From assembly GCA_045617165.1 (NCBI GenBank), contig JAZLIE010000152.1, forward strand, positions 1 through 32,000: 32,000 nt of DNA. Direction: 5' to 3'. Positions 8,356 through 28,667 of the stretch are shown piece by piece (the stretch's first letter is position 1; each line of letters begins with the position of its first letter). Both the position numbers and the translations under genes were made by a program. The DNA comes from Candidatus Enterocola sp. (lineage in GTDB: Bacteria > Bacteroidota > Bacteroidia > Bacteroidales > Paludibacteraceae). The notes beneath the pieces were generated by a model, which saw only the letters and a program-made list of their open reading frames with translations, ran no database searches and was not told where the DNA came from.

Positions 8356-8371
8356 GAAATAAGAAATAAGA
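8344..8371. repeat. Tandem heptamer AATAAGA x4 spanning the S1-gene stop codon
   Basis: There are four exact copies at 8344, 8351, 8358 and 8365. The stop TAA (8353-8355) lies inside the repeat. ATTTCTT follows and can pair with AAGAAAT. Confidence 0.7.
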
Positions 8372-8383
8372 ATTTCTTGTTTA

Positions 8384-14109: not shown

Positions 14110-14838
14110 TTAAAATTTCAACCTGCAAGATACCCCGACAGAGTTGTCTATCGCCCTATCCTTAGTGGCTGGTATAACAGCGGGAGACAAGTGCATTGAC
14201 AAATCAGGAGAGACATCGTAGTCCCTCAACTGAGAGTCAACGTATGAGTCAATAATAGAGAGCATATATAGAACAACCGTTGCAAGAATACTCAAATCAC
14301 GGTTACGCTGATACCCTTCCATCTTGCTTTTGAACGTGCGCTTATAATAATCTATGTTTGATGATGTTATCTCAACCCCCGATGGCAACAGATACTTATA
14401 GTAGTCAGCGTTAGGGTCTGTGCTACATAAATCAGTGTACCCCCTCCTGTATTCAACATACAACTCATTATTCCACGATATGGCATACCCAAGCCCAGCG
14501 AAACCACCATATACTATAGGCAGTTTCCAATACTGACGGTTATATATCTGACCTGCCCCTGGAAATATGGCGGCTATCCACGCAGCCATCTCAGGTTTAG
14601 GAATCCTGTTTATGCGCCTGAGCCTATCCTGGCGTTTTTGCTCCGCCTCAACCTCTTTCATCAGATATAGAGTATCAAGCGTAACAACATCTGTATCAGA
14701 CATTAATGATGACAGTTCAGCAAGAGCGACATTAGCGGAAACAGTATCAACCGTTGCAGCAACAGTAATAGAGTCAGCAGCGTAAGCACATACTACTGAG
14801 AATATTAGAAAAACCGTATATGCCGCTACCCTACGCAT
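14110..14838 (-). CDS. DUF5683 domain-containing protein
   Basis: 242 aa with a signal peptide and the motif AAIFPGAGQIYNRQYWKLPIVYGGFAGLGYA. It occupies the usual position downstream of parB in Bacteroidales. Its ATG overlaps the parB stop (TAATG). Confidence 0.8.
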   Translation of the reverse strand: MRRVAAYTVFLIFSVVCAYAADSITVAATVDTVSANVALAELSSLMSDTDVVTLDTLYLMKEVEAEQKRQDRLRRINRIPKPEMAAWIAAIFPGAGQIYNRQYWKLPIVYGGFAGLGYAISWNNELYVEYRRGYTDLCSTDPNADYYKYLLPSGVEITSSNIDYYKRTFKSKMEGYQRNRDLSILATVVLYMLSIIDSYVDSQLRDYDVSPDLSMHLSPAVIPATKDRAIDNSVGVSCRLKF

Positions 14839-15701
14839 TACTGAATCTTATCAAGCAGAGAGAGAATGTTTTCAAACTGCTCATCACTCTTAAATGACAG
14901 TACAATTTTACCAGTACCCCTCTCTGAGTGGTCTATTGTGACTTTTGAGTTAAACACACTTGATAGTTTGGCACATAGTGACTCATAATCTGAACTCTTC
15001 TCTCTTTGAGGCTTTGCGGAAGGTTCAGACTTCTTTTGCTGAGCCAACTGTTCAAGCCTGCGCACAGGCAGCCCCTCCTTAACCGTAAGTTCATAAAGTT
15101 CAAGCATTCTCTTGGTGTCCTCAACCCCTACAAGCGCGCGTGCGTGCCCCATATCTATCTTGCCCTCCTTAATACCCAATTGAATCTCAGCAGGCAGTTT
15201 CAGTAACCTTAAATAGTTAGCCACAGTGGCACGTTTCTTCCCCACCTTCTCTGCCAGACGCTCCTGAGTGAATTTATAATCATCAATCAAACGCTGGTAT
15301 GAGAGGGAAATCTCTATGGCATTCAAATCCTCACGTTGTATATTCTCCACCAGAGCCATCTCCATAAGAGTCTCATCTGTGGCGGTCTTTATATAAGCCG
15401 GAATTGACTCCAAGCCACACCTCTTTGCCGCGCGCCAGCGTCTCTCACCAGATATAATCTGATACCTGCCTCCAGCCATCTCCCTTAGCGTTATAGGCTG
15501 TACAACACCATACTCCTTTATTGAGGCGGCAAGTTCATCCAACGCCTCCTCATCAAAAACAGTACGCGGCTGATTAGGATTGGCGTCAATCAAATTCAAG
15601 GCAATCTCACTAATCTGAGATGACCCCGATGTCTGAACATTATCAAGTTCAATAAGAGCGCCAAGCCCTCTTCCAAGTGCATTTTTCTTAGGTTGTGCCA
15701 T
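14838..15701 (-). CDS. parB: ParB/Spo0J chromosome partitioning protein
   Basis: 287 aa with the ParB box GERRWRAA and an HTH region (ERLAEKVGKKRATVANYLRLLKLP). Its ATG overlaps the parA stop (TAATG). Confidence 0.95.
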   Translation of the reverse strand: MAQPKKNALGRGLGALIELDNVQTSGSSQISEIALNLIDANPNQPRTVFDEEALDELAASIKEYGVVQPITLREMAGGRYQIISGERRWRAAKRCGLESIPAYIKTATDETLMEMALVENIQREDLNAIEISLSYQRLIDDYKFTQERLAEKVGKKRATVANYLRLLKLPAEIQLGIKEGKIDMGHARALVGVEDTKRMLELYELTVKEGLPVRRLEQLAQQKKSEPSAKPQREKSSDYESLCAKLSSVFNSKVTIDHSERGTGKIVLSFKSDEQFENILSLLDKIQ

Positions 15702-16468
15702 TATTTAGAGTTCTTTTTAGTTATTTCCTGAGCAAGTTGGATATAATTCTGAGCCCCACGTGAATCAGCGTCATAGAGAATAACTGGAATGCCGTGGCTT
15801 GGAGACTCGCTGAGTTTAATATTACGCTGTATGACAGTCTCAAACACCATATCACCAAAATACTGCTTAACCTCACTGTAAACCTGGTTTGCAAGTTTCA
15901 AGCGGCTGTCATACATAGTGAGCAGAAAGCCCTCTATCTCAAGTGCCGTATTCAATCGGCTCTTTATTATCTTAATGGTATTCAATAGTTTGCTTATACC
16001 TTCCAAAGCATAATATTCAGCCTGTACAGGTATTATAACACTATCAGCGGCGGTAAGGCAGTTAATAGTAATAAGTCCTAAAGATGGAGAGCAATCAATA
16101 AGCACATAGTCATAATTATCCTTGACAGGTGCTATCAACCTCTTAAGCAGATACTCACGCTCTTGCATTTTAATCATCTCAACCTCAGCGCCCACCAAAT
16201 CAATGTGAGAGGGCAGCACATCAAGTTTATCCATCTCAGTATGCTGAATTGCCTTTTCAGCACTCTCACCATTTATAAGGCACTCATATATTGTGGTCTC
16301 CAACTTAGTAATGTCAATGTTCAACCCCGATGACGCATTAGCCTGAGGGTCAGCATCAACAACAAGCACACGCTTCTCAAGCACAGCAAGAGAAGCCGCT
16401 AAATTAATGGCGGTAGTGGTCTTCCCCACACCACCTTTCTGGTTTGCAATAGCTATTATCTTTCCCAT
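15701..16468 (-). CDS. parA: ParA/Soj chromosome partitioning ATPase
   Basis: The deviant Walker A is KGGVGKTT. I placed the start at MGKIIAIANQ (ATG 16466-16468) rather than the ORF-track 16486. A -7 box lies 23 nt upstream. Confidence 0.95.
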   Translation of the reverse strand: MGKIIAIANQKGGVGKTTTAINLAASLAVLEKRVLVVDADPQANASSGLNIDITKLETTIYECLINGESAEKAIQHTEMDKLDVLPSHIDLVGAEVEMIKMQEREYLLKRLIAPVKDNYDYVLIDCSPSLGLITINCLTAADSVIIPVQAEYYALEGISKLLNTIKIIKSRLNTALEIEGFLLTMYDSRLKLANQVYSEVKQYFGDMVFETVIQRNIKLSESPSHGIPVILYDADSRGAQNYIQLAQEITKKNSK

Positions 16469-16490
16469 AAATACACTTTTTAACAAGGTA

Positions 16491-16639: not shown

Positions 16640-17341
16640 ATGGTTTATTCACACGAAGTAGAAAACATGTGTGTTGTAAAAAAAGGTCCTAACCACGGAC
16701 CCGCCCCTATACCTGAAGAGGGTAAATGGGTAAAGGCTAAAGAGATTAAGGACATCTCAGGCCTTACACACGGTATCGGTTGGTGCGCTCCTCAGCAGGG
16801 TGCTTGTAAATTAACACTTAATGTAAAGGAAGGTATTATACAAGAGGCGCTTGTAGAGACTATAGGTTGCTCAGGTATGACACACTCCGCCGCTATGGCA
16901 TCTGAGATTCTTCCTGGAAAAACTCTTCTTGAGGCCCTTAACACAGACCTTGTTTGCGATGCCATCAACACCGCAATGCGTGAGCTTTTCCTTCAGATTG
17001 TTTACGGCCGTACACAGTCCGCTTTCTCAGAGGGCGGTCTTACAATTGGCGCCGGACTTGAGGACCTTGGCAAGGGTTTCATAAGCCAGACAGGCACTCT
17101 TTACAGCACAAAAGTTAAAGGTCCTCGTTACCTGCAACTTACAGAAGGTTACATTACAAAAATGTTCCTTGATGCTGATGATGAGGTCTGCGGTTATGAA
17201 TTTGTACATCTTGGCAAATTTATGGACGCTATTAAGAAAGGCAAGCCAGCCGATGAGGCTCTTAAGAGCGTAACCGGCACATACGGACGCACAAAACCAG
17301 AGCAAGGTGCAGTTAAATCTATTGACCCACGTAAAGAATAA
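16640..17341 (+). CDS. NifU/IscU-like iron-sulfur scaffold-domain protein (atypical, 233 aa)
   Basis: Three Cys are spaced as in IscU-type scaffolds (GWCAPQQGAC; IGCSGMTHSAAMASE; LVCDAINTA), followed by an extra ~100-aa C-terminal region. It lies immediately upstream of the GGGtGRT gene. Confidence 0.65.
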   Translation: MVYSHEVENMCVVKKGPNHGPAPIPEEGKWVKAKEIKDISGLTHGIGWCAPQQGACKLTLNVKEGIIQEALVETIGCSGMTHSAAMASEILPGKTLLEALNTDLVCDAINTAMRELFLQIVYGRTQSAFSEGGLTIGAGLEDLGKGFISQTGTLYSTKVKGPRYLQLTEGYITKMFLDADDEVCGYEFVHLGKFMDAIKKGKPADEALKSVTGTYGRTKPEQGAVKSIDPRKE

Positions 17342-17354
17342 GGAGGACAAAGCC

Positions 17355-18365
17355 ATGATTAGAGAAGTAAAATTTGAAAGTCAGGACCGCCGTGAGAAAC
17401 AGATTCTTGCAGCGCTCAAAGAGAATGGAATCAATAGTATTCAAGAAGCAAATGAGATTTGTGAGAAAGCAGGACTTGACCCTTACAAGACTTGTGAGGA
17501 GACACAGATGATTTGCTTTGAAAACGCTAAGTGGGCATACGTAGTAGGTTCAGCCATAGCACTCAAGAAAGGTTGCAAAAACGCCGCTGACGCTGCAGAA
17601 GCAATAGGTATAGGACTTCAGGCATTCTGTATTCCTGGTTCAGTTGCTGATGACCGTAAGGTAGGTCTTGGTCACGGTAACCTTGCAGCCCGTCTTCTAC
17701 GTGAAGAGACACAGTGCTTCGCATTCCTTGCAGGTCACGAGTCATTTGCAGCAGCAGAAGGTGCCATTAAGATTGCAGAGATGGCTAATAAGGTTCGTAA
17801 GAACCCACTCCGTTGCATTCTTAACGGACTTGGCAAAGACGCCGCTATGATTATAAGCCGTATAAACGGTTTCACATACGTACAAACAGAGTTTGACTAC
17901 TTTACAGGCAAACTTAATGTAATTAAGGAGAAAGCCTACAGTGACGGACCACGCGCCAAAGTTAAATGCTACGGTGCTGACGATGTTCGTGAAGGTGTTG
18001 CCATTCTTTGGAAAGAGAACGTTGATGTATCCATAACAGGTAACTCAACCAACCCGACACGTTTCCAACACCCGGTTGCAGGTACATACAAGAAGGAGCG
18101 CATACTTGCAGGTAAGCCTTACTTCTCAGTTGCCTCAGGTGGTGGTACAGGACGTACTCTTCACCCGGATAATATGGCTGCAGGTCCTGCATCTTACGGT
18201 ATGACCGATACTCTTGGCCGTATGCACTCAGACGCTCAGTTTGCAGGTTCTTCATCAGTTCCCGCTCACGTAGAGATGATGGGATTCCTTGGCATAGGCA
18301 ACAACCCAATGGTAGGTTGCACAGTTGCATGTGCAGTTAATGTAGCACTTGCACTAAGCAAGTAA
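17355..18365 (+). CDS. GGGtGRT family protein (function unknown)
   Basis: The eponymous motif is present (SVASGGGTGRTLHPD). I placed the start at ATG 17355 (MIREVKFESQ), which follows AGGAGGAcaaagcc. The ORF-track start at 17307 overlaps the upstream gene. Confidence 0.85.
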   Translation: MIREVKFESQDRREKQILAALKENGINSIQEANEICEKAGLDPYKTCEETQMICFENAKWAYVVGSAIALKKGCKNAADAAEAIGIGLQAFCIPGSVADDRKVGLGHGNLAARLLREETQCFAFLAGHESFAAAEGAIKIAEMANKVRKNPLRCILNGLGKDAAMIISRINGFTYVQTEFDYFTGKLNVIKEKAYSDGPRAKVKCYGADDVREGVAILWKENVDVSITGNSTNPTRFQHPVAGTYKKERILAGKPYFSVASGGGTGRTLHPDNMAAGPASYGMTDTLGRMHSDAQFAGSSSVPAHVEMMGFLGIGNNPMVGCTVACAVNVALALSK

Positions 18366-18388
18366 TCACTAAAATTATTGACAAGATT

Positions 18389-18658
18389 ATGGCAAAATTC
18401 ACTAACATACCACATTCCGCAAATGTTAATAAGTCGGCGGATATGGACTATCGTTATGTGCATTTTGCCGTAATGGCAATAGAGTCTGGTGCTCAGAAAA
18501 TGAACATCTCGGGCAAACAGATGCATGACCGTTTACAAAAGCAGGATTTAATACATCGTCGCCTCTTTGGCCGCTACGAAGAGTTGCATAGTCAGTCGCT
18601 GCAATATGTAACGGATGACATAGTGGAAACACTTCAAAATTGGGAAGCTGCACAATGA
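18389..18658 (+). CDS. DUF3791 domain-containing protein
   Basis: 89 aa with the motifs YVHFAVMAIESGAQKMNISGKQMHDRL and GRYEELHSQS. Its stop overlaps the next ATG (ATGA). Confidence 0.7.
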   Translation: MAKFTNIPHSANVNKSADMDYRYVHFAVMAIESGAQKMNISGKQMHDRLQKQDLIHRRLFGRYEELHSQSLQYVTDDIVETLQNWEAAQ

Positions 18659-19155
18659 GAATATTTCATGGTTCAGATAGTATAGTAGATGCTCCCAAAA
18701 CTAATTTCGGTCGCAAAAACCTAGACTTCGGTTGTGGTTTCTATGTCACTAAATTGGAGAAGCAGGCTTCCAAGTGGGCTTTTGCTGTCGCCGAACGTAA
18801 AGGACCGTACTCTCCCGCCATTCTCAATGAGTATGAATTTGATTACGAAGCCGCAGTAAGTCGGTTTCGTATATTGTGCTTTGAGACATATAATCTGGAC
18901 TGGTTGGAATATGTGGTGGCATGCCGTAGGGGAAAACCTATATGGAAAGACTACGATATAATTGAAGGTGGTGTTGCTAATGATAATGTAATTGATACCG
19001 TGGAGGATTATGAGAATGGTCGTATAACGGCAGAACAAGCACTTGATCAATTACGGTTTAAGAAACCGAATCATCAGATTTGTATTATCAATCAGGATGT
19101 TGTTGATTTGTATATACAATTTGTACAACATAGAGTTTTGAAGGAAAAGGTATGA
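18655..19155 (+). CDS. DUF3990 domain-containing protein (possible H-Y-E ADP-ribosyltransferase-like fold)
   Basis: It starts at MRIFHGS (ATG 18655, overlapping the upstream TGA). The motifs are IFHGS, FGCGFYVT and DIIEGGVAND. Its stop overlaps the next ATG (ATGA). Confidence 0.7.
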   Translation: MRIFHGSDSIVDAPKTNFGRKNLDFGCGFYVTKLEKQASKWAFAVAERKGPYSPAILNEYEFDYEAAVSRFRILCFETYNLDWLEYVVACRRGKPIWKDYDIIEGGVANDNVIDTVEDYENGRITAEQALDQLRFKKPNHQICIINQDVVDLYIQFVQHRVLKEKV

Positions 19156-19358
19156 GAGATGCGGTTAAATGGCGCAAGCAGAGCCGACTGATTATGATGT
19201 TGGCAGAGTGGAAAGGTATCGCTCCTGAAGTGGCATTGGATTTGTTTTATACAACTAATACCTACCGTCTCCTCTGTAATCCTGCAACTGGTCTTGAACT
19301 GATGTCTGATGCATATATATTTGCCGACTTGCAAGAAGAGTTAAATGGAATAAAATAA
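19152..19358 (+). CDS. DUF3791-like small protein
   Basis: 68 aa with the motifs IMMLAEWKGIAPEVALDLFYTTNTYRLL and LELMSDAYIFADL. It is the usual third member of the DUF3791/DUF3990 triplet. Confidence 0.6.
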   Translation: MRDAVKWRKQSRLIMMLAEWKGIAPEVALDLFYTTNTYRLLCNPATGLELMSDAYIFADLQEELNGIK

Positions 19359-19528
19359 GCCACGCCGTGGGATGCTACCAATATAGGGTATGTCGTATCG
19401 GGCGGTGGTAGCAGGTGAAAATCCTGCAAAGACATATTAAAAGCGTTTATTGACGCTCTGTTCTGGCTTTCAGAAATCTCGCAAATTTATGTAAGAATCA
19501 GGACTTAGCAGCGATGAATGTCTATGGG

Positions 19529-19708
19529 GTATGTAGCACCCTGCACTACAACATATTATCACATGTACAAGCGTGTGAAATTTGTTGGATATATAGTGCA
19601 GCCATACATATTCGGCGTGGACTTCGCGTTGTCAGTTCTATTCTTACGGGCAACGCGAGAGCCTCTGAAAGCGTGGACTGACAACAGAGTGAGTTCCACG
19701 CTTTTTTT
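19529..19708 (+). ncRNA. Candidate structured RNA (leader or sRNA) ending in an intrinsic terminator
   Basis: There is no credible ORF here. I checked these helices by hand: GTATG/CATAC plus CTGCACTA/TAGTGCAG (19529-19607); CGCGTTG/CAACGCG (19625-19657); GTTGTCAG/CTGACAAC (19628-35 with 19678-85). GCGTGGAC occurs twice (19615, 19671) and either copy can pair with TCCACGC (19695-19701), which precedes a T7 run. Confidence 0.35.
19670..19708 (+). terminator. Rho-independent terminator
   Basis: An 8-bp stem AGCGTGGA/TCCACGCT with a 17-nt loop is followed by TTTTTTT (19702-19708). Confidence 0.65.
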
Positions 19709-19761
19709 ATGTCCATAGAATAGATGATTCTATTGATTATTAACCAAATAAAACAATTGCT

Positions 19762-21432
19762 ATGAAAACAAAAATCTTTCAACGAGGTGCATTTATGTGT
19801 CTATGTCTCGTTATGTTATTACCGAGCTCATGCTCAAAGTCTTTAAAACAAATAATTGCAGATGTTGAGCCTGCAACATTTATCGTCTATACATACGATG
19901 AATATGGTTCCCCTTCTGGTTCTGGATCGGGCTTCTTTATAGAACCAAGTGGAGTTGGAGTAACCAACTGGCATGTGTTAGACAAATCTGTAAAGGCTGT
20001 GATTAAGACTCCAACTGGAAAACAATTTGAGATAGATAGTGTTCTTTGTGCTTCTGCTAAAAAGGATATACTTGTCTTTCGAATAAAGAACAATGATGGA
20101 TCCAAGTTTAGTACTATATCATTCAGTAAAACAAAACCAGAAAAAGGTACACCTGTATATAATATTAGTGCACCTATGGGTATGGAATCGAGTGTGTCGG
20201 AGGGTATTGTAGCATCTTATCGTGAAGATGGACACGGTGAAATCGTACAAACAACTGCACCGATTTCTCCTGGATCAAGCGGAAGCCCATTGCTTACGGA
20301 CAAGGGCGAAGTATTTGCAATTGCAACATTTAAGCGTAGAGGAGGTGAAAATATGAACTTTGGTGTAATTATGACAGAAAACTTCCGTCAAGAGTTAGAT
20401 GGAAAAGAATTTTACAAAAAAAATAGAAAATTCAATTCAGGAAAGTCTGATTTGGTTCTGCTGAATATTTTACCTGATAAAGGTGCTGATATTATGCTCA
20501 ATGCGATTGAGTTCGGTCCAACAGCAACTACCCTATATTTAACTTACACTAACATGCATTTAACGAATAGTGATGGTGGCTGGATGATTTGGTGTGAGTT
20601 GAATAAGAAGGATAAGGGATTCTTTATTGAGGATAAGGATACCAAACAAAGATATTATGTTTCGTCTTCTACTCTTGAATCCGACAAAGAAAGATCAAAG
20701 ACAATAGGATTAGCTGAGATTCTCCAATTTAAAGTATATTTTCCTGTAATAAAGAATAAGCCTACCAATATCGATGTAATGTGGGGAGAGGATGACCGCA
20801 GTTATCATTTTACGGACATAAATTTGGATGATTATCGCAACAATCTCAATTTTGATGAACTAGGTTATCAGCGTGCCTATGCGCTATCTTGCACTACCGA
20901 TGCTGGTGACTTTGCAATGACAATATCTATGTTATCAGATATTTTGGAGGAAAACCCATCGGATGTGATATCTCTTAACATGATGGCTATTCTATCTCAT
21001 GTGTTGTCTAACAATACTGATGCAATGTATTATCTAGAGGAGGCGATTAATCAAAACCCTAATGATGAATTGGCTTATCTTAATCGTTCGCAAATGTATG
21101 CCAATTCAGAGAATTACAAAGAAGCAATTAACGACCTAACTTCTGCAATCAATCTTGCACCTGGTCAACCTGACTATTATTTCCAACGTGCGTGGTACTA
21201 TTACTTAATCGAGGATTATCAAAATTCATTAACAGATCTTAATACTTGCTTGGATAAATCAGAGAAAGAAGATGGCTTTGAGGATAGTGGTTACTTTTAT
21301 GAATTGCGAGGCTATGTCAATTATCACTTGAATAACAAAAAAGCAGCTCGTGCCGATTGTCAAAAAGCATACAAATTGTCAAAGGATAAAAAATTAGATC
21401 AACGTCTCCAAAATTTTTGGAGTATATTATAG
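19762..21432 (+). CDS. Lipoprotein: trypsin-like (S1/S1C) serine protease domain, unknown middle domain and C-terminal TPR repeats
   Basis: 556 aa. The signal peptide has a Cys (LLPSSC, C24). The catalytic triad context is TNWHV (H71), KKDILVF (D102) and PGSSGSPLL (S173). Residues ~230-370 are unassigned. TPR-like units run from ~380 to the end (AYLNRSQMY, YYFQRAWYY). Confidence 0.85.
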   Translation: MKTKIFQRGAFMCLCLVMLLPSSCSKSLKQIIADVEPATFIVYTYDEYGSPSGSGSGFFIEPSGVGVTNWHVLDKSVKAVIKTPTGKQFEIDSVLCASAKKDILVFRIKNNDGSKFSTISFSKTKPEKGTPVYNISAPMGMESSVSEGIVASYREDGHGEIVQTTAPISPGSSGSPLLTDKGEVFAIATFKRRGGENMNFGVIMTENFRQELDGKEFYKKNRKFNSGKSDLVLLNILPDKGADIMLNAIEFGPTATTLYLTYTNMHLTNSDGGWMIWCELNKKDKGFFIEDKDTKQRYYVSSSTLESDKERSKTIGLAEILQFKVYFPVIKNKPTNIDVMWGEDDRSYHFTDINLDDYRNNLNFDELGYQRAYALSCTTDAGDFAMTISMLSDILEENPSDVISLNMMAILSHVLSNNTDAMYYLEEAINQNPNDELAYLNRSQMYANSENYKEAINDLTSAINLAPGQPDYYFQRAWYYYLIEDYQNSLTDLNTCLDKSEKEDGFEDSGYFYELRGYVNYHLNNKKAARADCQKAYKLSKDKKLDQRLQNFWSIL

Positions 21433-21438
21433 TCCATT

Positions 21439-22584
21439 ATGATGAAACGATTTCCTATTTTAATCTTATTGATTATATGTCCCTATCTCCATGCCCAAGT
21501 GACGATTCGGTCTTCATTAGCATGGAGCCAATCCTTTAGTACTGGTTCGTGGACAAATAATGAAGGGCTAACATACTCATCTACTGCTTGGGGTGATACA
21601 TATTACAATCCAAAGTGGCAAGATATGAGTAAGCAGACTTCTATTCAATCAAGCAGTATTTGGAGATATTACAATGTCGGTCCTTCAAATAAGCGAAATT
21701 GGACATTCACCCTCCCGATTAATAACCTAAATGCAGAAAAAAATCATTATTATTATACTAATGCAAACCCTAGTTTAAAGCAACAGTCTCACCAAATCTA
21801 TTGGGGTATTTCTATCGGAATGATGATTGATGGTGTGGAGAAGAATGTTTATTTCTGGATGTCTCGTAGTGCAAGAGATTACTATTATGATGGAACACCA
21901 ACATATACTAGTGAAAACTATCTCTCATGCTCTGTAGAAAAGGGTGGTTGGACAACAACGAGCCATGTTTATCCGTCTTGTTCTCAAAGTGCAACAACAT
22001 CACTCTATATAGAATCTTCGACATATGGTCAGACAACTATTAAATGGGATGGATTTCAAATAACAAGTGTACCGTATTATGTGAGTAAAATCACGTATGT
22101 GAAGGTTATGGTTGGAACTCAGGCAAAAATTCAATTAGGCAAGGCTTCAGCATATAGTGGAGCTCCTATAGGCAGTACCTATGATGGTTCTGATCTTATG
22201 GAAAAAGAGCAATATAGCGCAGCAATTTCGAAACTCTATCAATCTTCTGGAGTTTATTTGGAAAAACCAGCTTTGAATTTAGCCTTTTGCTATTTGATAA
22301 CTGGGCAGCCTGATAAATGTATAGAGATGGCATCTGCTCTTGTTAAATATAACGGAGAAACTATTTCGTATGCGTATTATCTCCGTGGAATGGCACGAGA
22401 GAATAAATCTAACTACTTGGATGCATTAGAAGATTATCGATTAGCAGGAAGCGTTGCAACTGACGAATATAATAGATTATACAACACTATCTATAGTTCT
22501 AATAAGTCCGTGCAGACTAACAATAGTCAACAGAAAAAACAACAGTCAACACAACAAAATACAAAACCCGCATTAACAAGATGA
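21439..22584 (+). CDS. Exported hypothetical protein with TPR-like C-terminal region and Gln-rich tail ending KPALTR
   Basis: 381 aa with signal peptide MMKRFPILILLIICPYLHAQ. The N-terminal ~230 aa are rich in S/T/Y/W and look like beta-structure. It lies 6 nt after the protease gene, and its stop overlaps the next ATG (ATGA). Confidence 0.7.
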   Translation: MMKRFPILILLIICPYLHAQVTIRSSLAWSQSFSTGSWTNNEGLTYSSTAWGDTYYNPKWQDMSKQTSIQSSSIWRYYNVGPSNKRNWTFTLPINNLNAEKNHYYYTNANPSLKQQSHQIYWGISIGMMIDGVEKNVYFWMSRSARDYYYDGTPTYTSENYLSCSVEKGGWTTTSHVYPSCSQSATTSLYIESSTYGQTTIKWDGFQITSVPYYVSKITYVKVMVGTQAKIQLGKASAYSGAPIGSTYDGSDLMEKEQYSAAISKLYQSSGVYLEKPALNLAFCYLITGQPDKCIEMASALVKYNGETISYAYYLRGMARENKSNYLDALEDYRLAGSVATDEYNRLYNTIYSSNKSVQTNNSQQKKQQSTQQNTKPALTR

Positions 22585-23771
22585 AAAAGATAATATTAAT
22601 ATTCCTATCTTGTGTTTCTGTCGCTGCTTCAGCACAACATAAGACAAAATATACGTATAATATCACTTTAGGATGGAATGACACAATTCAAACGACATTA
22701 TGGATTCGTCAAAATCCATTTGAAGATTACGAAAAATCCTTGACTGCTCAATATGGTCAGTCAATTAAGTCGCAAATATCGGAGTTGCTCTCAGATGATG
22801 ATGTCAAGCGTATTGTAGATAGTGAAATAGATTATTACCAAGACCGACTTTTAAGTAATTCCTTTTACAATACAACGGCAACCAAGGAAAAACAAAAAAT
22901 AGATAATCGCTTAGCGAATCCGAATGTTTTACGTATGGAATTGGAAAAGGATATTGTTGAAATGGTAGGACAAAACATAAACCATCAGTATAAGAATGAC
23001 TATCAATGTTTTGGTTGGAATCTATGGAAATACAATTCTCTATTTCATCTTAAAGTAAAGAATCTAGCATTCAGAAATGCGTTGTACAATAAGGCCGTGG
23101 AAGTCTTATGTAAATTAGCGGCTTATTACCCTAAGGATTATCGTACCCATCTTGTTTCTGCGTTTTCCGAGTCGCTAAAGGTGTTAGATGACATTGCGTC
23201 GGGAAAACATTCGTACACAATACAGACAGATGAAAGCAAAAACTGGAAACCATTGGTGATTTTTGTAGATGGAGTTCCTGATATAGAACTTGGTTATGGT
23301 ATTACTGGTTTCCTTTTGCGTCGCGTGTATATGGATAACATACCATTGTCAGAGGTGAGAACTAAAACAATTTCTTTGATTGCAAAGTTAAAAGCCGTTG
23401 ATAACTCAAAAAATGACAATATTATGAGTAAATATGTGATAAACAATGAAATTGCTTTTTGTGTGGGAGCCAGTCGAAATTTTTTTGTGTCTTTAGCATC
23501 CAACAAGGAATTCGTTCCGTTCATTAGCGAATATGAGCAGAATTATTATGGAAATACCATTTTTACACGATACAACAATGGTCAAGTATTCTATCAAATC
23601 GAAAATGGTTATACGTGGCAAACAGAATTGAAAACTATAGTTCTTGACAAGTACTTTAATGTCATATATCATGAACCGTTGTCCCTCTCTCAACCAATTC
23701 AAATAAAGACACTACAGTCACAACAAAATCCATCTCCCCAACAAAACAGCAAATCAACATTGACACGATGA
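22581..23771 (+). CDS. Exported hypothetical protein with Gln-rich tail ending KSTLTR
   Basis: 396 aa with signal peptide MKKIILIFLSCVSVAASAQ. The composition looks mostly helical and I recognise no family. Confidence 0.7.
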   Translation: MKKIILIFLSCVSVAASAQHKTKYTYNITLGWNDTIQTTLWIRQNPFEDYEKSLTAQYGQSIKSQISELLSDDDVKRIVDSEIDYYQDRLLSNSFYNTTATKEKQKIDNRLANPNVLRMELEKDIVEMVGQNINHQYKNDYQCFGWNLWKYNSLFHLKVKNLAFRNALYNKAVEVLCKLAAYYPKDYRTHLVSAFSESLKVLDDIASGKHSYTIQTDESKNWKPLVIFVDGVPDIELGYGITGFLLRRVYMDNIPLSEVRTKTISLIAKLKAVDNSKNDNIMSKYVINNEIAFCVGASRNFFVSLASNKEFVPFISEYEQNYYGNTIFTRYNNGQVFYQIENGYTWQTELKTIVLDKYFNVIYHEPLSLSQPIQIKTLQSQQNPSPQQNSKSTLTR

Positions 23772-23884
23772 AAGACCAACATGTTCTGATAGTATTGTTT
23801 GCTCTATTCTGTCCCTTCGTGAACTTTAATTTAAATAACACTAATTTCAAAGGACTTTTATTTTATGGTGTCAGAAATAGCTAA
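23768..23884 (+). CDS. 38-aa micro-ORF (MKDQHVLIVLFALFCPFVNFNLNNTNFKGLLFYGVRNS), possibly a vestigial signal-peptide gene start
   Basis: I translated this by hand; it is below the ORF-track cutoff. The ATG overlaps the upstream stop (ATGA), as at the 22581 junction. The N-terminus is hydrophobic. Confidence 0.25.
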   Translation: MKDQHVLIVLFALFCPFVNFNLNNTNFKGLLFYGVRNS

Positions 23885-23911
23885 TAATTTTTTAAACAAA
23901 CTATTGTATCT

Positions 23912-26287
23912 ATGAAAACTGTTATTTTTTCTTATAATCCGTATTTGGTACAGACAAGTATCATAGTAGACGGACAAACTCCCGACTGTGAGAATTTACA
24001 AGTTTCACAAGGTGTTCGCTTACAAGAATGGGTAGAGGAGCTTCCTAAGATTCTCGCCAAAGAGTATAATGACAAGATTGATTTGCGTTTTATTGGAACG
24101 AAAATTGATTTTGAGGATGTACGCGTAGCATTCAAAGAGAGTGGCATTGCATATACTTTGACATTAGAGGAAGAAAAAGAGGATGTTGATGCGGCAGAGA
24201 AAACGATTGACAGAATCTTTAAAGACATTCAAAGTGGACCAATAGCTGATCTAAAGACCAAAGGAATAAGAGATACCTTTAAGAAAGCTAAATCCTCCGA
24301 GTTCGAGGTAAATGTAGTGGCAACTATGAGTTCTGGGAAGTCAACACTTATCAATGCTTTATTGGGACGCAAACTGATGCCAGCAAAAAATGAGGCCACA
24401 ACAGCTACAATTGTTAAAATCAAGGATGTAGATGGAAAGAAAGATTTCTCTGCGGTGGCCTATGATCGTAACCATAAGGTAGTTGAACACTTTGAGAAAG
24501 TAACTCTCAAGGATATGCAAAGACTTAACGATAACGAACGAATTTATTATATTGATATTGAGGGTGATATCAAGTTTGTTTCTTCTGAAGGTATGAGTCT
24601 TGTTCTTGTAGATACTCCAGGACCTAACAATTCTCGAGATTTGCATCATCAAGAAATGACTTTTAAGATGTTGGAGAATTCTGATAAGTCGCTGGTGCTT
24701 TTCGTAATGAATGGAAGACAATTAGGTATCAACGATGAAAAGATTTTCTTGGATTTTATCTGCTCTAACATGAAGAAGGGAGGAAAAAAGACCCGAGATC
24801 GCTATATATTTGCAGTTAATCAGTTGGATGCATTTAAACCTAATCCTGATGATGATGGGGAAGAATGCATCCAAAAAGCCCTTGATTCGGCAAGAGCAAG
24901 CCTAAACGAAAGGGGAATAAAAGATGCGAATATCTTCCCAGTTTCTGCTGGAGTTGCCTTGGAAAAACGTATAGACGACGAAGATGAAGAATTAATGCGT
25001 CCTTTCTATAAGAAATCGAAGAAGTATGCAGCAATGCGATTTAATGAATACAAAGAGTTTACACATTTACCGCAATCTGTACTAGAACAGATGAAATCTC
25101 ATATGGAGGAATTGGATGATAAAGACAAGGTGGAGTATTATTCAGGCATCTGTAGTATAGAAGAAGCTATACGTCTATACATCAACAAATATGCTCGTAC
25201 GACAAAGGTTTGTGACCTTGTTTTGTCGTTTAACAGCCAGCTAACCGAGTTGGCTACAATGGCTCGGATAGAAGATAGTATTCGCAAGGATGCAAGTTTT
25301 AAGCGTCAGTTAAATGAAGAGATTGAAAAGGCAAAGAAACTTATCTCTGATTCGAAGTTAACACAAGAGTTTACATCAAATGTATATAATACTAACTATA
25401 CCGCTGAGACAGAGCGTGATATAGCATATGCTATTAGTGATGCTAAAACTCAGTTTAGAGACTTGGTTAAAGGAAAGAGTTATAAAGTGGACTTGAAACA
25501 AGCCGAAGCTCAAAGTCAAAGCATTTGTCGTCAGTATGACCAATGCGCCGCACAAATCAATGTCCGCATAAATAGCATCATTCAAAACTCCTTCAAGAAA
25601 AGCCTATCTCAAGTTATCTCACAATATGTTAGGCACTTGTCAATTTTAGGAATCACTCCTCAATCTTTGAATCTGTCTACATATTCTGGAATAACCGTTT
25701 CTGCACCGAACATGCAGAAAAAAATGGGAGATAACAAGAAAACATATGATGAAAGTTATATTGTTGATGAAGAGTATCGTGTGAAGGTAGATTCAACAAA
25801 GGGACGAAATGGATGGATAGGCACAACTACGATGGCTGGTGTGGGAGCTACTATTGGCTCTGTAATACCAGTAATTGGTACTGCTGCTGGTGCCTTCTTT
25901 GGTGGTCTTATCGGACTAATCGCAGGCCGATCTTTCGGTCATGATGAATATTATGAAACAAAATATCGTCCAAAGAAGATTGAAAAGTACGTTGACTACG
26001 TTAACATGCATGAAGTCGCAACTTCAGCATCTCATGACTTTGATATCAAAATGAATGAGTTGGAAGATCGTGCTCGTTCATATATTAACGACGAAAACGA
26101 GCGTCTTAAGAAAAGTATTAAAGAGAAAATAAACGAAGTTGATACTTTGATGCTTAAGAAGTTGAATGATTTGCAGACAATGCAGAATCGTGATAAAGAA
26201 ACGGCAGAAGAAATTGCCCGTAAGACATCGGAAAAAGAATGGTTGGAGAGCATACAAAAACGTGTTAATGACCTGATTAATTTCTGA
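23912..26287 (+). CDS. Dynamin-family large GTPase (bacterial dynamin-like protein) with a glycine-zipper membrane hairpin
   Basis: 791 aa. G1 is ATMSSGKST (K143), the G2 region is NEATTATIV, G3 is DTPG and G4 is NQLD. A long helical stalk follows. The hydrophobic Gly-rich segment is GWIGTTTMAGVGATIGSVIPVIGTAAGAFFGGLIGLIAGRSF (about nt 25810-25940). The C-terminus is coiled-coil-like. An unassigned N-terminal domain of ~110 aa precedes the GTPase. Confidence 0.85.
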   Translation: MKTVIFSYNPYLVQTSIIVDGQTPDCENLQVSQGVRLQEWVEELPKILAKEYNDKIDLRFIGTKIDFEDVRVAFKESGIAYTLTLEEEKEDVDAAEKTIDRIFKDIQSGPIADLKTKGIRDTFKKAKSSEFEVNVVATMSSGKSTLINALLGRKLMPAKNEATTATIVKIKDVDGKKDFSAVAYDRNHKVVEHFEKVTLKDMQRLNDNERIYYIDIEGDIKFVSSEGMSLVLVDTPGPNNSRDLHHQEMTFKMLENSDKSLVLFVMNGRQLGINDEKIFLDFICSNMKKGGKKTRDRYIFAVNQLDAFKPNPDDDGEECIQKALDSARASLNERGIKDANIFPVSAGVALEKRIDDEDEELMRPFYKKSKKYAAMRFNEYKEFTHLPQSVLEQMKSHMEELDDKDKVEYYSGICSIEEAIRLYINKYARTTKVCDLVLSFNSQLTELATMARIEDSIRKDASFKRQLNEEIEKAKKLISDSKLTQEFTSNVYNTNYTAETERDIAYAISDAKTQFRDLVKGKSYKVDLKQAEAQSQSICRQYDQCAAQINVRINSIIQNSFKKSLSQVISQYVRHLSILGITPQSLNLSTYSGITVSAPNMQKKMGDNKKTYDESYIVDEEYRVKVDSTKGRNGWIGTTTMAGVGATIGSVIPVIGTAAGAFFGGLIGLIAGRSFGHDEYYETKYRPKKIEKYVDYVNMHEVATSASHDFDIKMNELEDRARSYINDENERLKKSIKEKINEVDTLMLKKLNDLQTMQNRDKETAEEIARKTSEKEWLESIQKRVNDLINF

Positions 26288-26289
26288 TT

Positions 26290-27258
26290 ATGCCATATTC
26301 AGAAGTTGAATTTTCTTCAGATAGAGTAAAACTAAGAAAGGGGGAAAACGAGAGGGCTGTGCTTTCATGGAATGCTCAAGGTGCGTCATCTGTGACTCTT
26401 TCGGCTCCCTCGTTGTCTCTATCTGTTAATTCAGAAGGGAACTATGTAGTTTCTCCAGAGCAAACTACGACATATAAATTAGTTGCAACATATCCTGATG
26501 GCTCAACACAAACAAAGCACATGCAGATAGAGATTCATCCGGCGGCATATTTGTCTTATGATGTTGTAGAACATATTGATGGAGATAATGTCTCTGCCGA
26601 ACTGATGTGGAGCATTGAAAATGCACAAAATGTACAAATTGATGGTGTGTTGGTTCCTTCAAAAGGTTTCAAAAGCTATTTAATCAATCATCAAGTGTAT
26701 GCACAAATCCAATATGATGATCCTTTCGGATCTCATAGCAAAACTATATGCATATGTCAGGAGAATAAATCGTTTTGGGTCTTATTGAAAGTCGTAAAAC
26801 TTCTGCTACGTCCGTTCACCTTTATTGGATTTGTAGGGAAAAAAGAGATGCGTTGGACTATTAGATTGTGTTTTATTGGTATTGCTTCCACATTGGGTAT
26901 CTTTATTGCCAATAATTCTTCAATGATAGAACAAAATGAATGGCTTCAACTGTTTAATGGGCATGACTTCTTTAGGGCACGTAATATTCTAAGCGTGTTC
27001 TTATACATTTGGATGATGCAACTAGGTAAACGCTGGAAAGACACTAATATATCACAATGGTGCGTATTGCTTTTTGTTCCATTAATTGTGTTTTTATGGA
27101 TACCAATAGGTATTTTAGTAAGCACTTTTGATACAGATTACGTTTTACTATACGCCTTATGGACTGAATACTTGGGATTATTTTGGTTGACATCATTAAT
27201 AGTTGCATGCATGAACTCTAAACATAAGCAAAAATATCAAAAGATAAAGGTCTGGTAA
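26290..27258 (+). CDS. Membrane protein: two tandem Ig-like/beta-sandwich repeats and a C-terminal multi-TM DUF805-like domain
   Basis: 322 aa, starting 2 nt after the dynamin stop. The repeats are VLSWNAQGASSVTLS...TTTYKLVA and ELMWSIENAQNVQIDG. There are four or more hydrophobic segments from residue ~160. The motif GKRWKDTNISQWCVLLFVPLI resembles the DUF805 RRLHD..SGWW..L..P signature. No N-terminal signal peptide is evident. Confidence 0.7.
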   Translation: MPYSEVEFSSDRVKLRKGENERAVLSWNAQGASSVTLSAPSLSLSVNSEGNYVVSPEQTTTYKLVATYPDGSTQTKHMQIEIHPAAYLSYDVVEHIDGDNVSAELMWSIENAQNVQIDGVLVPSKGFKSYLINHQVYAQIQYDDPFGSHSKTICICQENKSFWVLLKVVKLLLRPFTFIGFVGKKEMRWTIRLCFIGIASTLGIFIANNSSMIEQNEWLQLFNGHDFFRARNILSVFLYIWMMQLGKRWKDTNISQWCVLLFVPLIVFLWIPIGILVSTFDTDYVLLYALWTEYLGLFWLTSLIVACMNSKHKQKYQKIKVW

Positions 27259-27281
27259 TCATTTTTTGCTTAAACAATAAA

Positions 27282-27320
27282 GTGTAAACTCGAAGCGTTT
27301 TGAGATTACACTATTCTTTT
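27282..27320 (+). terminator. Probable rho-independent terminator closing the five-gene cluster
   Basis: The stem is GTGTAAACTC / GAGATTACAC (9 of 10 paired), followed by TATTCTTTT. Confidence 0.5.
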
Positions 27321-27420
27321 ATACTCTTTGTTATGAGTAAAAAGTATCGGATTTCGTTTTTCCTCTCTTCTTTCAACCTAGTCAAGACGCTTTTCATCAA
27401 AATATAGAAAGTAAATTAAG

Positions 27421-27492
27421 ATGGTGGGCTTCATATGGCATAGGCAACAACAATATTGTAGATTGCACGGTAGCATGTGCCGTATATGAATA
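27421..27492 (+). pseudogene. Diverged, frameshifted remnant of the 3' end of a GGGtGRT gene
   Basis: It aligns codon by codon with 18276-18347. An identical 16-mer TGGCATAGGCAACAAC occurs at 27436-27451 and at 18290-18305. After a 1-nt insertion it translates GIGNNNIVDCTVACAVYE*, compared with GIGNNPMVGCTVACAVNV in the intact gene. No upstream coding body is present. Confidence 0.8.
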
Positions 27493-27576
27493 GTTGAGCG
27501 TGGAATAAATATTTTTCAACTGTAACTGAAATAACTGAAATAGTTTATTTGATTTTGATTTTTTTCAAAAACAACT

Positions 27577-27584: not shown

Positions 27585-27608
27585 TAGTTGGATAGTCGTA
27601 AAGATATA

Positions 27609-28331
27609 ATGAATATAGCTGAATCTGATTCTATTGTAGAGATTTTAGAGCATGTCTTGTTGACCGCCTCAAATTCGCCGTGCCTACCATCCAAATCCAA
27701 TGAAAGGGAGAAACTTTTGCTGACATTGTATCACGTGTTACTTGGCGAAAAACAAACAACAAGTGGACTGATTCCCATCTGTATGAACGAGCAAATGGGA
27801 GCAGATATAAAGAAATTGGAAGATAGCATTCAAAGTTCTTGTCACTGTCCTTTTCTTAAGCAAGCGATGTCGTACTTTATTAGCGAATTGATTTGTAACG
27901 TAGAGCAACATGCTGGGGTAGAACAAGGCTATGGCATAGTACATTATTCCGCCAAGAGTAATAGACTGCTTGTAGGCATAGCAGACGGTGGTATTTCTAT
28001 CTATGGAAGTTATGTTCGTGCACAAAAATATTTGGCGGAGGTTGGCAATAGTGATGCACAAGCACTTTATCTTGCTCAAAATGGATATTCTACAAAGAAC
28101 CTACCTAATGCAGAGAATCGTGGATATGGCATTTCCTCTAATTCTCGGATGATAGTAGATGGATTAGGCGGCACATTCGCCATTTTGTCCGGTAATGCAC
28201 TATATTATCATTCTGCACAAAGCAAGCGTATATTTGCCCTTCCTGAAGATTTTGTTTGGCCTGGCACCTTGGTCCTGGCAGATATTTCCGTTGAAGAAAG
28301 GAAATTTAGTTTATATGATTATATTGGTTGA
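27609..28331 (+). CDS. GHKL/HATPase_c-like ATP-binding protein (RsbW/SpoIIAB-like serine kinase fold)
   Basis: The N-box is ELICNVEQHA, the G1-like motif is IADGGISIYG and the G2-like motif is NRGYGISS. The ORF-track TTG at 27588 is only 4 nt past the -7 box, so I prefer ATG 27609 (MNIAESD). Confidence 0.65.
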   Translation: MNIAESDSIVEILEHVLLTASNSPCLPSKSNEREKLLLTLYHVLLGEKQTTSGLIPICMNEQMGADIKKLEDSIQSSCHCPFLKQAMSYFISELICNVEQHAGVEQGYGIVHYSAKSNRLLVGIADGGISIYGSYVRAQKYLAEVGNSDAQALYLAQNGYSTKNLPNAENRGYGISSNSRMIVDGLGGTFAILSGNALYYHSAQSKRIFALPEDFVWPGTLVLADISVEERKFSLYDYIG

Positions 28332-28334
28332 AAT

Positions 28335-28667
28335 ATGAAACATTTACTTAAAATAGCAGACCAATTTGGAACAGAGTTTCGCACTCGTTCGCTTGTGGAA
28401 CGATTGGGGGCTTCGCTTGTGCCGAAAGATGAATATATGTTCGATATGTCCGGCATTGAATTGATTTCTCGTTCTGCCGCTGATGAATTGTATAATATCT
28501 CTATGTCTCATCATGTAGAGATTATTCACATGACTCCTTTTGTGCAACAGATGTATGATGCAGTCAAATTAGGGCGATTTCAACCTCGCCAGCATTTGAG
28601 TAGCGATGTAGAGTTTATCCAATGCACAGACTTGCACTCCTTGAGTGCTCTCGTGCAGAAAATATAA
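28335..28667 (+). CDS. STAS-like DUF4325 domain protein
   Basis: 110 aa starting 3 nt after the ATPase stop. The motif FDMSGIELISRSAADELYNI is the DUF4325 signature (DF.GV..IS.SFADE). Confidence 0.65.
   Translation: MKHLLKIADQFGTEFRTRSLVERLGASLVPKDEYMFDMSGIELISRSAADELYNISMSHHVEIIHMTPFVQQMYDAVKLGRFQPRQHLSSDVEFIQCTDLHSLSALVQKI

Follow-up and report, generated by a model that had tools for sequence, protein, structure and literature searches.

A probable relic of an integrative element, devoid of its integrase, next to GGGtGRT in Candidatus Enterocola

How can a block of genes come to lie between the end of a gene and a second, diverged copy of that end when no integrase accompanies it? This question is raised by the GGGtGRT gene of Candidatus Enterocola sp. 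(Paludibacteraceae; assembly GCA_045617165.1), on positions 1-32,000 of contig JAZLIE010000152.1. This 32-kb stretch is referred to here as the window, coordinates are those of the window unless a comparison locus is named, and L-numbers (L001, L161, and others) designate the comparison loci. A previous sequence-only reading had described a 9-kb block inserted as a single unit at the 3' end of GGGtGRT. We conclude, with a probability of roughly 65%, that the block is an integrase-less relic of an integrative element that was once inserted at the GGGtGRT 3' end, and that it is now moved by homologous recombination.

A displaced gene tail at an attachment site of tyrosine integrases

The duplication involves three features, of which the third lies at the far end of the block:

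17355-18365, + strand, intact GGGtGRT gene (Pfam GGGtGRT, E=7.6e-190; 99.7% amino acid identity to L001, synonymous divergence [dS] 0.34)
18274-18342, + strand, proximal tail copy, inside the intact GGGtGRT gene (local alignment)
27419-27488, + strand, displaced and decayed GGGtGRT tail (attR-type scar), approximately residues 306-328, with a frameshift and a premature stop

In the local alignment, 18274-18337/42 and 27419-27483/88 are approximately 81% identical, with one 1-nt indel and a common 16-mer. The duplicate that had been noticed by eye (27421-27492 against 18276-18347) proved significant when aligned statistically, since its score of 68 lies about 24 standard deviations above shuffled targets (mean, 15.8; standard deviation, 2.2; maximum, 27), and 27419-27488 is the top match to the GGGtGRT tail within the whole window. 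The distal copy was also correctly described as having a 1-nt insertion and no gene body: past the indel, it translates as YGIGNNNIVDCTVACAVYE followed by a stop, which corresponds to the GGGtGRT C terminus, and no significant similarity was found upstream of 27419 when an extension of the remnant was tried. Thus, the tail is present at both junctions and the GGGtGRT gene is intact (325 of 327 Pfam profile positions), as after integration at a 3' end.

Within the codons for CTVACAV, all four differences between the copies are synonymous third-position changes (P of approximately 0.012), which bears out the third-position divergence pointed out earlier. Nevertheless, the remnant has also decayed, being altered at the P, M, and G of GNNPMVG, a motif that is identical across the intact alleles listed, and truncated at its end. 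Regarding its source, the alleles match the remnant at up to 40 of 48 positions, and the window's own tail matches it at 39 of 48 (hand count), which is uninformative. The 16-mer was rejected as a crossover core, since about 28% of 68-nt alignments at approximately 81% identity are expected to contain a run of at least 16 identities.

Elsewhere, the same site is occupied by tyrosine integrases. Of 160 genome and metagenome loci, 10 have a homologous integrase 350 to 400 nt past the GGGtGRT stop (L033 11428-12642, L041, L043, L051, L062, L098, L105, L144, L152, and L154), and viral contigs add L213-L238; the integrase-bearing loci include those of Bacteroides fluxus (YIT 12057, L033) and B. rodentium. 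A scan of IMG/VR gave 65 loci, about 30 of them holding only the tail, and in about 20 of these the tail is internal to the contig and starts at residues ~277 to 283. An open reading frame (ORF) of ~405 aa starts 350 to 450 nt downstream of the tail, sometimes with a second one just upstream on the opposite strand. All seven of the tested ORFs of ~400 to 405 aa are tyrosine integrases, with Arm-DNA-bind_5, Phage_int_SAM_5, and Phage_integrase domains. Elements at GGGtGRT are often arranged in tandem, a tail fragment being followed by the next integrase.

A complete element, bracketed by the GGGtGRT gene and a displaced tail, was found on IMGVR_UViG_3300032167_005224. Its order is as follows:

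Left part: GGGtGRT, integrase, two unknowns, helicase-like, DUF3871, RadC, DUF2442
Right part: 195-aa recombinase, structured element, five small cargo ORFs, displaced tail, next integrase

The genes of this element are co-oriented, and its two tails share ~290 nt, with four differences in the coding part that are all synonymous, so that the synonymous signature seen in the window recurs in an element that has kept its integrase. Canonical displaced tails comprise residues ~280 to 336 and the terminator. Overall, these results show that the GGGtGRT 3' end (the last ~55 codons) is a real attB for tyrosine-integrase elements in Bacteroidales, and they support the earlier proposal of a 3'-end integration that left a displaced, diverged copy of the gene end. 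We found no published report of GGGtGRT as an attachment site, the 10 papers listed, out of 13 that mention GGGtGRT, being proteomics, transcriptomics, or genome surveys.

Displaced tails were identified in two further loci among 143, L034 and L036, neither of which has an integrase. L034 has a 96-nt repeat of 94% identity, in which all four coding differences are synonymous, and its cargo is a PDC-S01 ATPase. In L036, the repeat extends from approximately residue 283 through the terminator, and the cargo comprises ZorAB-like proteins, a DUF6939 protein, and a DarT-domain protein. The displaced tail of L036 (16487-16924) is interrupted by several short repeated insertions, LFSSCSLGKTNKFLLRSLVR-like units in translation, which look like small repetitive elements colonizing a pseudogene. 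Insertion sequence transposases lie directly to the right of the displaced tail in L161 (8344-8930) and L034 (13005-13253), where both contigs end; that of L161 is IS30-like, and the N terminus of that of L034 is of the IS1182/IS5 type (both identified by eye).

Taken as a model, the history of the window would run as follows. In related Bacteroidales, elements of ~12 to 14 kb with a 405-aa tyrosine integrase insert at the GGGtGRT 3' end, the incoming element bringing its own last ~55 codons and terminator and pushing the resident tail to the far end. The canonical order is tail, integrase, core (helicase-like, DUF3871, RadC, and DUF2442), 195-aa recombinase, a structured element of ~290 to 360 nt, cargo, and displaced tail. 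The window would keep only the right-hand end of this arrangement, namely, the structured element (19355-19715), the cargo (19762-27258), and the scar (27419-27488). The integrase would have been lost by deletion or replacement, along with the core and the small recombinase, a PDC-M13 trio abutting the GGGtGRT stop instead. The relic, together with the GGGtGRT operon, may since have passed between Paludibacteraceae lineages by homologous recombination, no direction being implied, and the cargo may have been re-assorted likewise through conserved arms. Since no fragment of the integrase survives, its loss is a step that we infer. The relic reading would account for the displaced, diverged tail, for the co-orientation of the genes, and for the missing integrase. 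This last feature had been regarded as unusual; it is best read as loss from a known element type, with no new integrase-free mechanism.

An exchanged operon and a slot of variable cargo

The closest genome locus to the window is L001, which belongs to a Paludibacteraceae metagenome-assembled genome (MAG) from horse faeces. The region 16640-19715 aligns with L001 at a uniform 88 to 97% identity and is continuous across the 16-mer, the stop codon, and the DUF3791 start. The high identity begins exactly at the ATG at 16640 and ends a few bases past a T-run, at ~19716. Besides GGGtGRT, this segment contains the following:

16640-17341, + strand, NifU-like scaffold gene, first of the segment shared with L001 (weak Pfam NifU_N match; dS 0.38)
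18389-18658, + strand, DUF3791 protein, PDC-M13A candidate (Pfam, E=1.6e-12; PADLOC, E=2.3e-13; 98% amino acid identity to L001)
18640-19155, + strand, DUF3990 protein, PDC-M13B, putative toxin of the trio (Pfam, E=5.5e-46; PADLOC, E=7.3e-48)
19152-19358, + strand, 68-aa ORF, PDC-M13C (PADLOC, E=1.7e-10; dS 0.40 to L001)
19355-19715, + strand, structured RNA-like element ending in a stem-loop and the T-run, left cargo boundary (minimum free energy, -148 kcal/mol)

Beyond ~19716, L001 carries two unknowns, an HSP70-like gene, a kinase-AAA gene, and a J-domain-like ORF, which are unrelated to the window's cargo. Therefore, the variable cargo starts at ~19716 and not at 18366. The view of the 9-kb block as a single insertion does not hold, as 18366-19715 is collinear with GGGtGRT in L001 at 88 to 97% identity.

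The synonymous divergence between the window and L001 changes sharply at the limits of this segment. It amounts to 0.26 to 0.56 for the NifU-like, GGGtGRT, and PDC-M13 genes and ranges from 1.3 to saturation in the flanks (prfC, Lon, PheS, ParA, ParB, and a TPR protein). Taken as a whole, 16640-27525 is closer to other lineages (dS 0.05 to 0.9) than the flanking core genes are. This contrast indicates that the GGGtGRT operon lies within a segment exchanged between lineages long after these had split. Since the operon itself (dS 0.34 for GGGtGRT, against at least 1.3 in the flanks) belongs to the exchanged segment, the present mobility of the locus is probably by homologous recombination and not by integration. 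GGGtGRT also lies in synteny with parAB, pheS, and lon in L001 and L073. In the window, a DUF5683-parB-parA block (14110-16486) is inverted relative to L001 (6942-9252), and one end of the inversion adjoins the start of the NifU-like/GGGtGRT operon, where the high identity begins.

A second comparison was provided by L161, an 8.9-kb Logan contig found through a search for homologues of the window's dynamin-like protein. It aligns to 19436-27525, including the remnant; homology ends at 27521 and is followed by the IS30-like transposase. As seen below, the identity changes in steps along the alignment:

19436-19732, left arm, ~94% identity to L161
19733-23931, three-gene trypsin-TPR module, ~98.4% identity, dS ~0.05
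23932-26331, dynamin gene, ~86% identity, dS 0.92
26332-26631, short patch where the partner gene begins, 94 to 99% identity
26632-27320, rest of the partner gene, 59 to 82% identity
27321-27520, right arm with the remnant, 94 to 95% identity

The low dS inside the segment relative to the flanks, together with these steps of mosaic identity, is a signature of recombination. L161 and L001 have their differences from the window in common over the left arm, where they are 97.5% identical to each other, but the cargo of the two is not the same. The left arm is common to the window, L001, and L161, and the right arm (27321-27520) to the window and L161 only. Homologous recombination is proposed here on three grounds: the contrast in dS, the mosaic identity, and the presence of other cargo next to a left arm that is nearly identical. 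From the comparison with L161 it would follow that the cargo slot extends from ~19716 to ~27320 and that modules inside it have been re-assorted by recombination. As the scar and the cargo are common to both, the remnant is older than the split of the window copy and L161, and it did not arise by an insertion in this genome, as had been supposed.

Two modules, A and B, occupy the slot, and further genes lie to the right of the scar:

19762-21432, + strand, module A gene 1, trypsin-like serine protease with TPR repeats (Pfam Trypsin_2, E=6.7e-24, and TPR)
21439-22584, + strand, module A gene 2, 381-aa TPR-like protein (weak Pfam TPR matches)
22581-23771, + strand, module A gene 3, 396-aa protein with an N-terminal helix, of a very rare family (no profile matches)
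23912-26287, + strand, module B gene 1, dynamin-like GTPase (Pfam Dynamin_N, E=6e-18; 86% nucleotide identity to L161, dS 0.92)
26290-27258, + strand, module B gene 2, 322-aa partner (DUF805 match in its homologues from L161 and L162)
27321-27520, + strand, conserved right arm, made up of the tail remnant and ~100 nt of unique sequence (94 to 95% identity to L161)
27588-28667, + strand, two low-G+C genes (247 aa and 110 aa) right of the scar (GC 0.35 to 0.38; absent from the L161 alignment)

The first gene of module A is 98 to 99% identical to L161 at the nucleotide level, and the second accompanies genes 1 and 3 in L161 and in L173-L176, where the three-gene module has other neighbors. The 396-aa protein has only 10 homologues at E <= 1e-5 in a collection of 5.8 billion proteins. 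Its AlphaFold2 model is confident (predicted local distance difference test score, 82), with no fold match in the PDB and none to a recombinase, so that a hidden recombinase was rejected for this gene. The 322-aa partner of the dynamin-like GTPase, which is the region most diverged from L161 (59 to 82%), has weak PHROG virion-protein matches at residues 8 to 118. Homologues of the dynamin-like protein occur alone or with a DUF805-like partner, beside restriction-modification, HSP70-like/helicase, or AAA_14 genes.

Judged from such annotations, the cargo probably consists of putative anti-phage or conflict systems. The defence-type neighbors of the cargo homologues are suggestive only. All other cargo found between GGGtGRT and a displaced tail matches defence or candidate defence families (PDC-S01 in L034; ZorAB-like and DarT in L036), and the HSP70-like and kinase-AAA genes that L001 carries instead are also counted as defence-type. 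The trypsin-TPR protein has a PADLOC match only to the protease part of RT-Protease_XI, and the TPR-like, 396-aa, dynamin-like, and 322-aa proteins have none, leaving modules A and B without a system-level match.

The PDC-M13 candidate system left of the slot is complete, with components A, B, and C all matched by PADLOC. Its first gene starts 23 nt past the GGGtGRT stop, with no intervening terminator. DUF3990, the domain of the putative toxin, is a member of the Pfam ADP-ribosyltransferase (ART) clan (PMC7955679). The 68-aa ORF was also considered as a DUF3791 paralogue; this was rejected, as it has no BLASTP similarity and matches PDC-M13C. Diverged DUF3791 and DUF3990 genes (40 to 49% amino acid identity) lie directly downstream of GGGtGRT in L064 (9661-10376), and a DUF3791 homologue does so in L111 (2500-2700), which suggests that a PDC-M13-like toxin module has repeatedly been placed at the GGGtGRT site.

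No block ORF matched an integrase, recombinase, or transposase in Pfam, NCBIfam, PHROGs, or PADLOC, and the 195-aa recombinase and three related integrases, as tblastn queries, had no match in the 32-kb window. Together with the fold check of the 396-aa protein, these searches confirm the earlier observation that no such gene lies between the two tail copies. The co-orientation of the block with the host operon also stands, as all annotated block genes are on the + strand, and so does the lack, on the + strand, of a TAnnTTTG box within the intergenic regions 18366-18388, 19359-19761, and 23772-23911. In plasmid and phage databases, only GGGtGRT itself was matched.

The low G+C content noted earlier from single lines of sequence is real, with 0.34 to 0.39 against 0.42 to 0.46 outside. 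Its limits differ from those of the block: at ~19.5 and ~28.5 kb, they place the start of the low-G+C tract ~1.2 kb inside the block as first drawn and its end ~1 kb past the remnant. This tract takes in the 247-aa and 110-aa genes, which probably represent further variable content outside the bracketed block. The 247-aa protein matches PHROG 3364 (E=3e-20) and has no Pfam, NCBIfam, or PDB match; the label of GHKL-ATPase given earlier to 27588-28331 was not reproduced by Pfam, NCBIfam, or PDB sequence searches. Homologues of the pair (44 to 55% amino acid identity) lie in L016 (15084-15988, - strand), 4 to 5 kb downstream of GGGtGRT and inverted, in an unrelated locus. The pair may be another module that frequents the GGGtGRT neighborhood.

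The structured element and the 195-aa recombinase

The left edge of the slot is marked by the structured element. On the + strand, 19355-19715 folds at -148 kcal/mol (z=-9.1), and on the - strand at -110 kcal/mol (z=-4.9); the L001 copy shows the same folding behavior. No Rfam family matches the element. Diverged copies were found by nhmmer, and a covariance model places the element in 30 loci beyond the window and finds a single copy in the window itself. For its 3' domain of 105 nt (19606-19711), a three-stem model was built on seven sequences: 87.9% of the cells are paired, compared with 41 to 49% with slid partners, and seven pairs change on both sides. Relatives of the element and locations of the recombinase are as follows (coordinates of each locus):

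Structured element: L001 12047-12410; L011 8065-8319 (- strand); L145 3868-4100; L075 13496-13727; L169 1-97; L174 112-213; L214 5952-6055; L238 6532-6631
195-aa tyrosine recombinase with the catalytic domain only: L224 5505-6092; L214 4923-5507; L215 5779-6363; L221 6023-6607; L144 18612-19196; L227 2463-1879; truncated copy, L075 13193-13363

In integrase-bearing elements, the structured element lies 400 to 600 nt after the 195-aa recombinase; the displaced tail follows 1 to 4 kb further on, and the interval is filled by + strand cargo. In five of six element pairs, homology breaks 0 to 50 nt past the structured element, as it does between the window and L001, and several pairs are homologous again over the last cargo gene and the tail. 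The cargo of the intact element in L214 includes a penicillin-binding-protein transpeptidase-domain protein (7521-8597) and a Kinase-PolyVal protein (9244-9834), indicating that the slot holds more than defence genes.

We cannot assign to any known system the arrangement, found in the intact elements, in which a 195-aa recombinase is paired with a structured element and a variable slot. Inversion, cassette exchange, and dimer resolution are candidate roles for this recombinase, which is of FimB/E size. The structured element, placed directly between it and the interchangeable cargo, might be the recognition site or the partner RNA of an undescribed cassette-exchange or expression-switch system that loads defence genes into GGGtGRT-targeting Bacteroidales elements, the window being a stranded slot; we put this forward as a speculative and rather unlikely idea. 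A TATATTTG box at 19316-19323 could serve as a promoter of the structured element. Inverted repeats with 14 of 16 matches (19431-19446 and 19698-19713) bracket 283 bp of it, and a TAnnTTTG box at 19482-19489 on the - strand would face the cargo if this segment were inverted. An inverton was mostly rejected: the right-hand repeat is unmatched in L214 and other relatives in a pattern scan, the box is lost in L001, L161, and L214 in the alignments as we read them, and wherever both were located (six elements), the structured element has one and the same orientation with respect to the 195-aa recombinase.

Origin of the block and its relation to known systems

Several observations weigh against the relic reading. 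The remnant in the window is ~68 nt long (residues ~306 to 328), shorter than the canonical tail of residues ~280 to 336 plus terminator, and the canonical 3' untranslated region (UTR) and terminator follow neither tail copy. No fragment of an integrase or of the small recombinase is left in the window. The search for integrase-bearing versions of the block, suggested by the sequence-only reading, did yield elements with the same site and the same layout; however, except for the structured element, the block has no sequence likeness to them. L034 and L036 are integrase-less as well, which leaves room for a route without an integrase. The sequence of L001 that was compared ends within its alternative cargo, short of the right junction. 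Lastly, no empty site was found among the 160 GGGtGRT loci (80 genomes and 80 metagenome contigs), none of which is a close relative; the block genes are absent from these loci, and the closest, L001, carries other cargo at the same left junction.

The alternative that best survives is that an integrase was never involved. With the gene as homologous anchor, a foreign GGGtGRT gene or tail would have come in together with its cargo, either through homology-facilitated illegitimate recombination or through one RecA-mediated crossover with a circular fragment, and the duplicate would be the resident tail left behind. The three integrase-less cases would fit such an entry, with remnants that start at different residues (~306 in the window, 313 in L034, and ~283 in L036), as would the recent sharing of the whole operon, beyond the tail, with L001, the mosaic identity that shows homologous recombination to be active here, and the statistically unremarkable 16-mer. 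Nevertheless, tyrosine integrases demonstrably use the site (10 of 160 loci and many viral contigs), and this alternative leaves unexplained why the window has the element-specific layout of structured element, cargo, and tail. Moreover, the repeat in L036 is of canonical extent, from ~283 through the terminator, and the remnant, being older than the split from L161, did not arise when this genome gained the region. We therefore regard an entry without any integrase as unlikely.

Lower still are the chances that the block is an integrase-less satellite, moved in trans by related GGGtGRT-targeting integrases acting on the two tail copies. Tandem arrays at the site would bring trans-acting integrases beside relics, and the same cargo and scar are present in a second lineage, with module A 98 to 99% identical between the two. 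Against this, the distal copy, with an identity of only 81%, has a frameshift and has lost sequence at both ends, and the intact stop is followed by a PDC-M13 gene instead of the canonical UTR, terminator, and arm region. It is this decayed distal copy and this noncanonical proximal junction that make mobilization in trans unlikely. In addition, no integrase lies in the 32-kb window, and the exchanged segment spans the whole GGGtGRT operon with internal steps of identity, which fits homologous recombination and not an excision at the tail copies.

That the resemblance is an artefact, whether of chance, of a duplication decayed in place, or of a chimeric MAG contig, is very unlikely, as L161, which was assembled independently, has the same scar. 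The window is probably metagenome-assembled, with a 100%-identical protein on record from a 34-kb NCBI contig, and 16640-27525 lies at another evolutionary distance than its flanks. Against an artefact, the alignment score is ~24 standard deviations above shuffles, the GGGtGRT-parAB-pheS-lon synteny is found in L001 and L073, the region is 92% and not 100% identical to the other lineage, which argues against simple co-assembly, and the synonymous-only differences recur in L034 and in the complete element.

The relic reading places the window close to several known systems. Tyrosine-integrase elements and prophages use the 3' ends of tRNA or protein genes as insertion sites and leave the gene restored; examples are the Bacteroides mobilizable elements of the NBU1/NBU2 type and P4-like islands. 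As in these, the window has an intact target and a displaced, slightly diverged copy of its 3' end, the element-borne tail differs synonymously, and integrase-bearing relatives use exactly the GGGtGRT site. Unlike them, the window lacks an integrase, the element core, and the canonical att extent, and the target is the GGGtGRT gene.

P4-like satellites and integrative elements also carry defence hotspots, and defence islands occur between core genes. As in these, a fixed slot near the element end holds interchangeable, co-oriented cargo that differs between near-identical backbones, and the cargo of the various loci matches the PDC-M13, PDC-S01, ZorAB-like plus DarT, and kinase-AAA families. 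The window differs in that its left bound is a structured RNA-like element (with the 195-aa tyrosine recombinase in intact elements) and in that the trypsin-TPR and dynamin modules are only putative defence genes, with no system-level PADLOC match.

Minimal mobile elements, described in Neisseria, are cassettes exchanged by recombination between conserved flanking genes (PMC3787668). The window is similar in its lack of mobility genes, in the alternative cassettes at one site, and in the co-transfer of conserved flanking genes, which gives low divergence and mosaic identity. In contrast, its site would have begun as an integrase att site and keeps a tail scar, and its right conserved flank is an arm of 200 nt and not a core gene. 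Natural transformation is not known for the host group.

Integrons provide a further comparison. Intact relatives of the block have a tyrosine recombinase gene, a structured site, and then variable co-oriented cargo, with homology breaking just after the site. However, the 195-aa recombinase has a catalytic domain only and is not an IntI, no repeated attC-like sites lie between the cargo genes, and the break point varies by 0 to 50 nt. Membership in the integrons was rejected for the window, which has no such recombinase and a structured element in a single copy, not one per cassette.

Altogether, an apparently integrase-free island can be explained here with no new mechanism, by the decay of an element followed by homologous recombination. 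In gut and rumen Bacteroidales, the conserved GGGtGRT 3' end proves to be an attachment site in frequent use. Behind it lies a defined slot of candidate defence genes, comprising PDC-M13, a rare trypsin-TPR trio, and a dynamin-like GTPase pair, whose edge is marked by an unannotated structured element supported by covariation. These features offer handles for mining defence cargo and for studying how the slot is reloaded.

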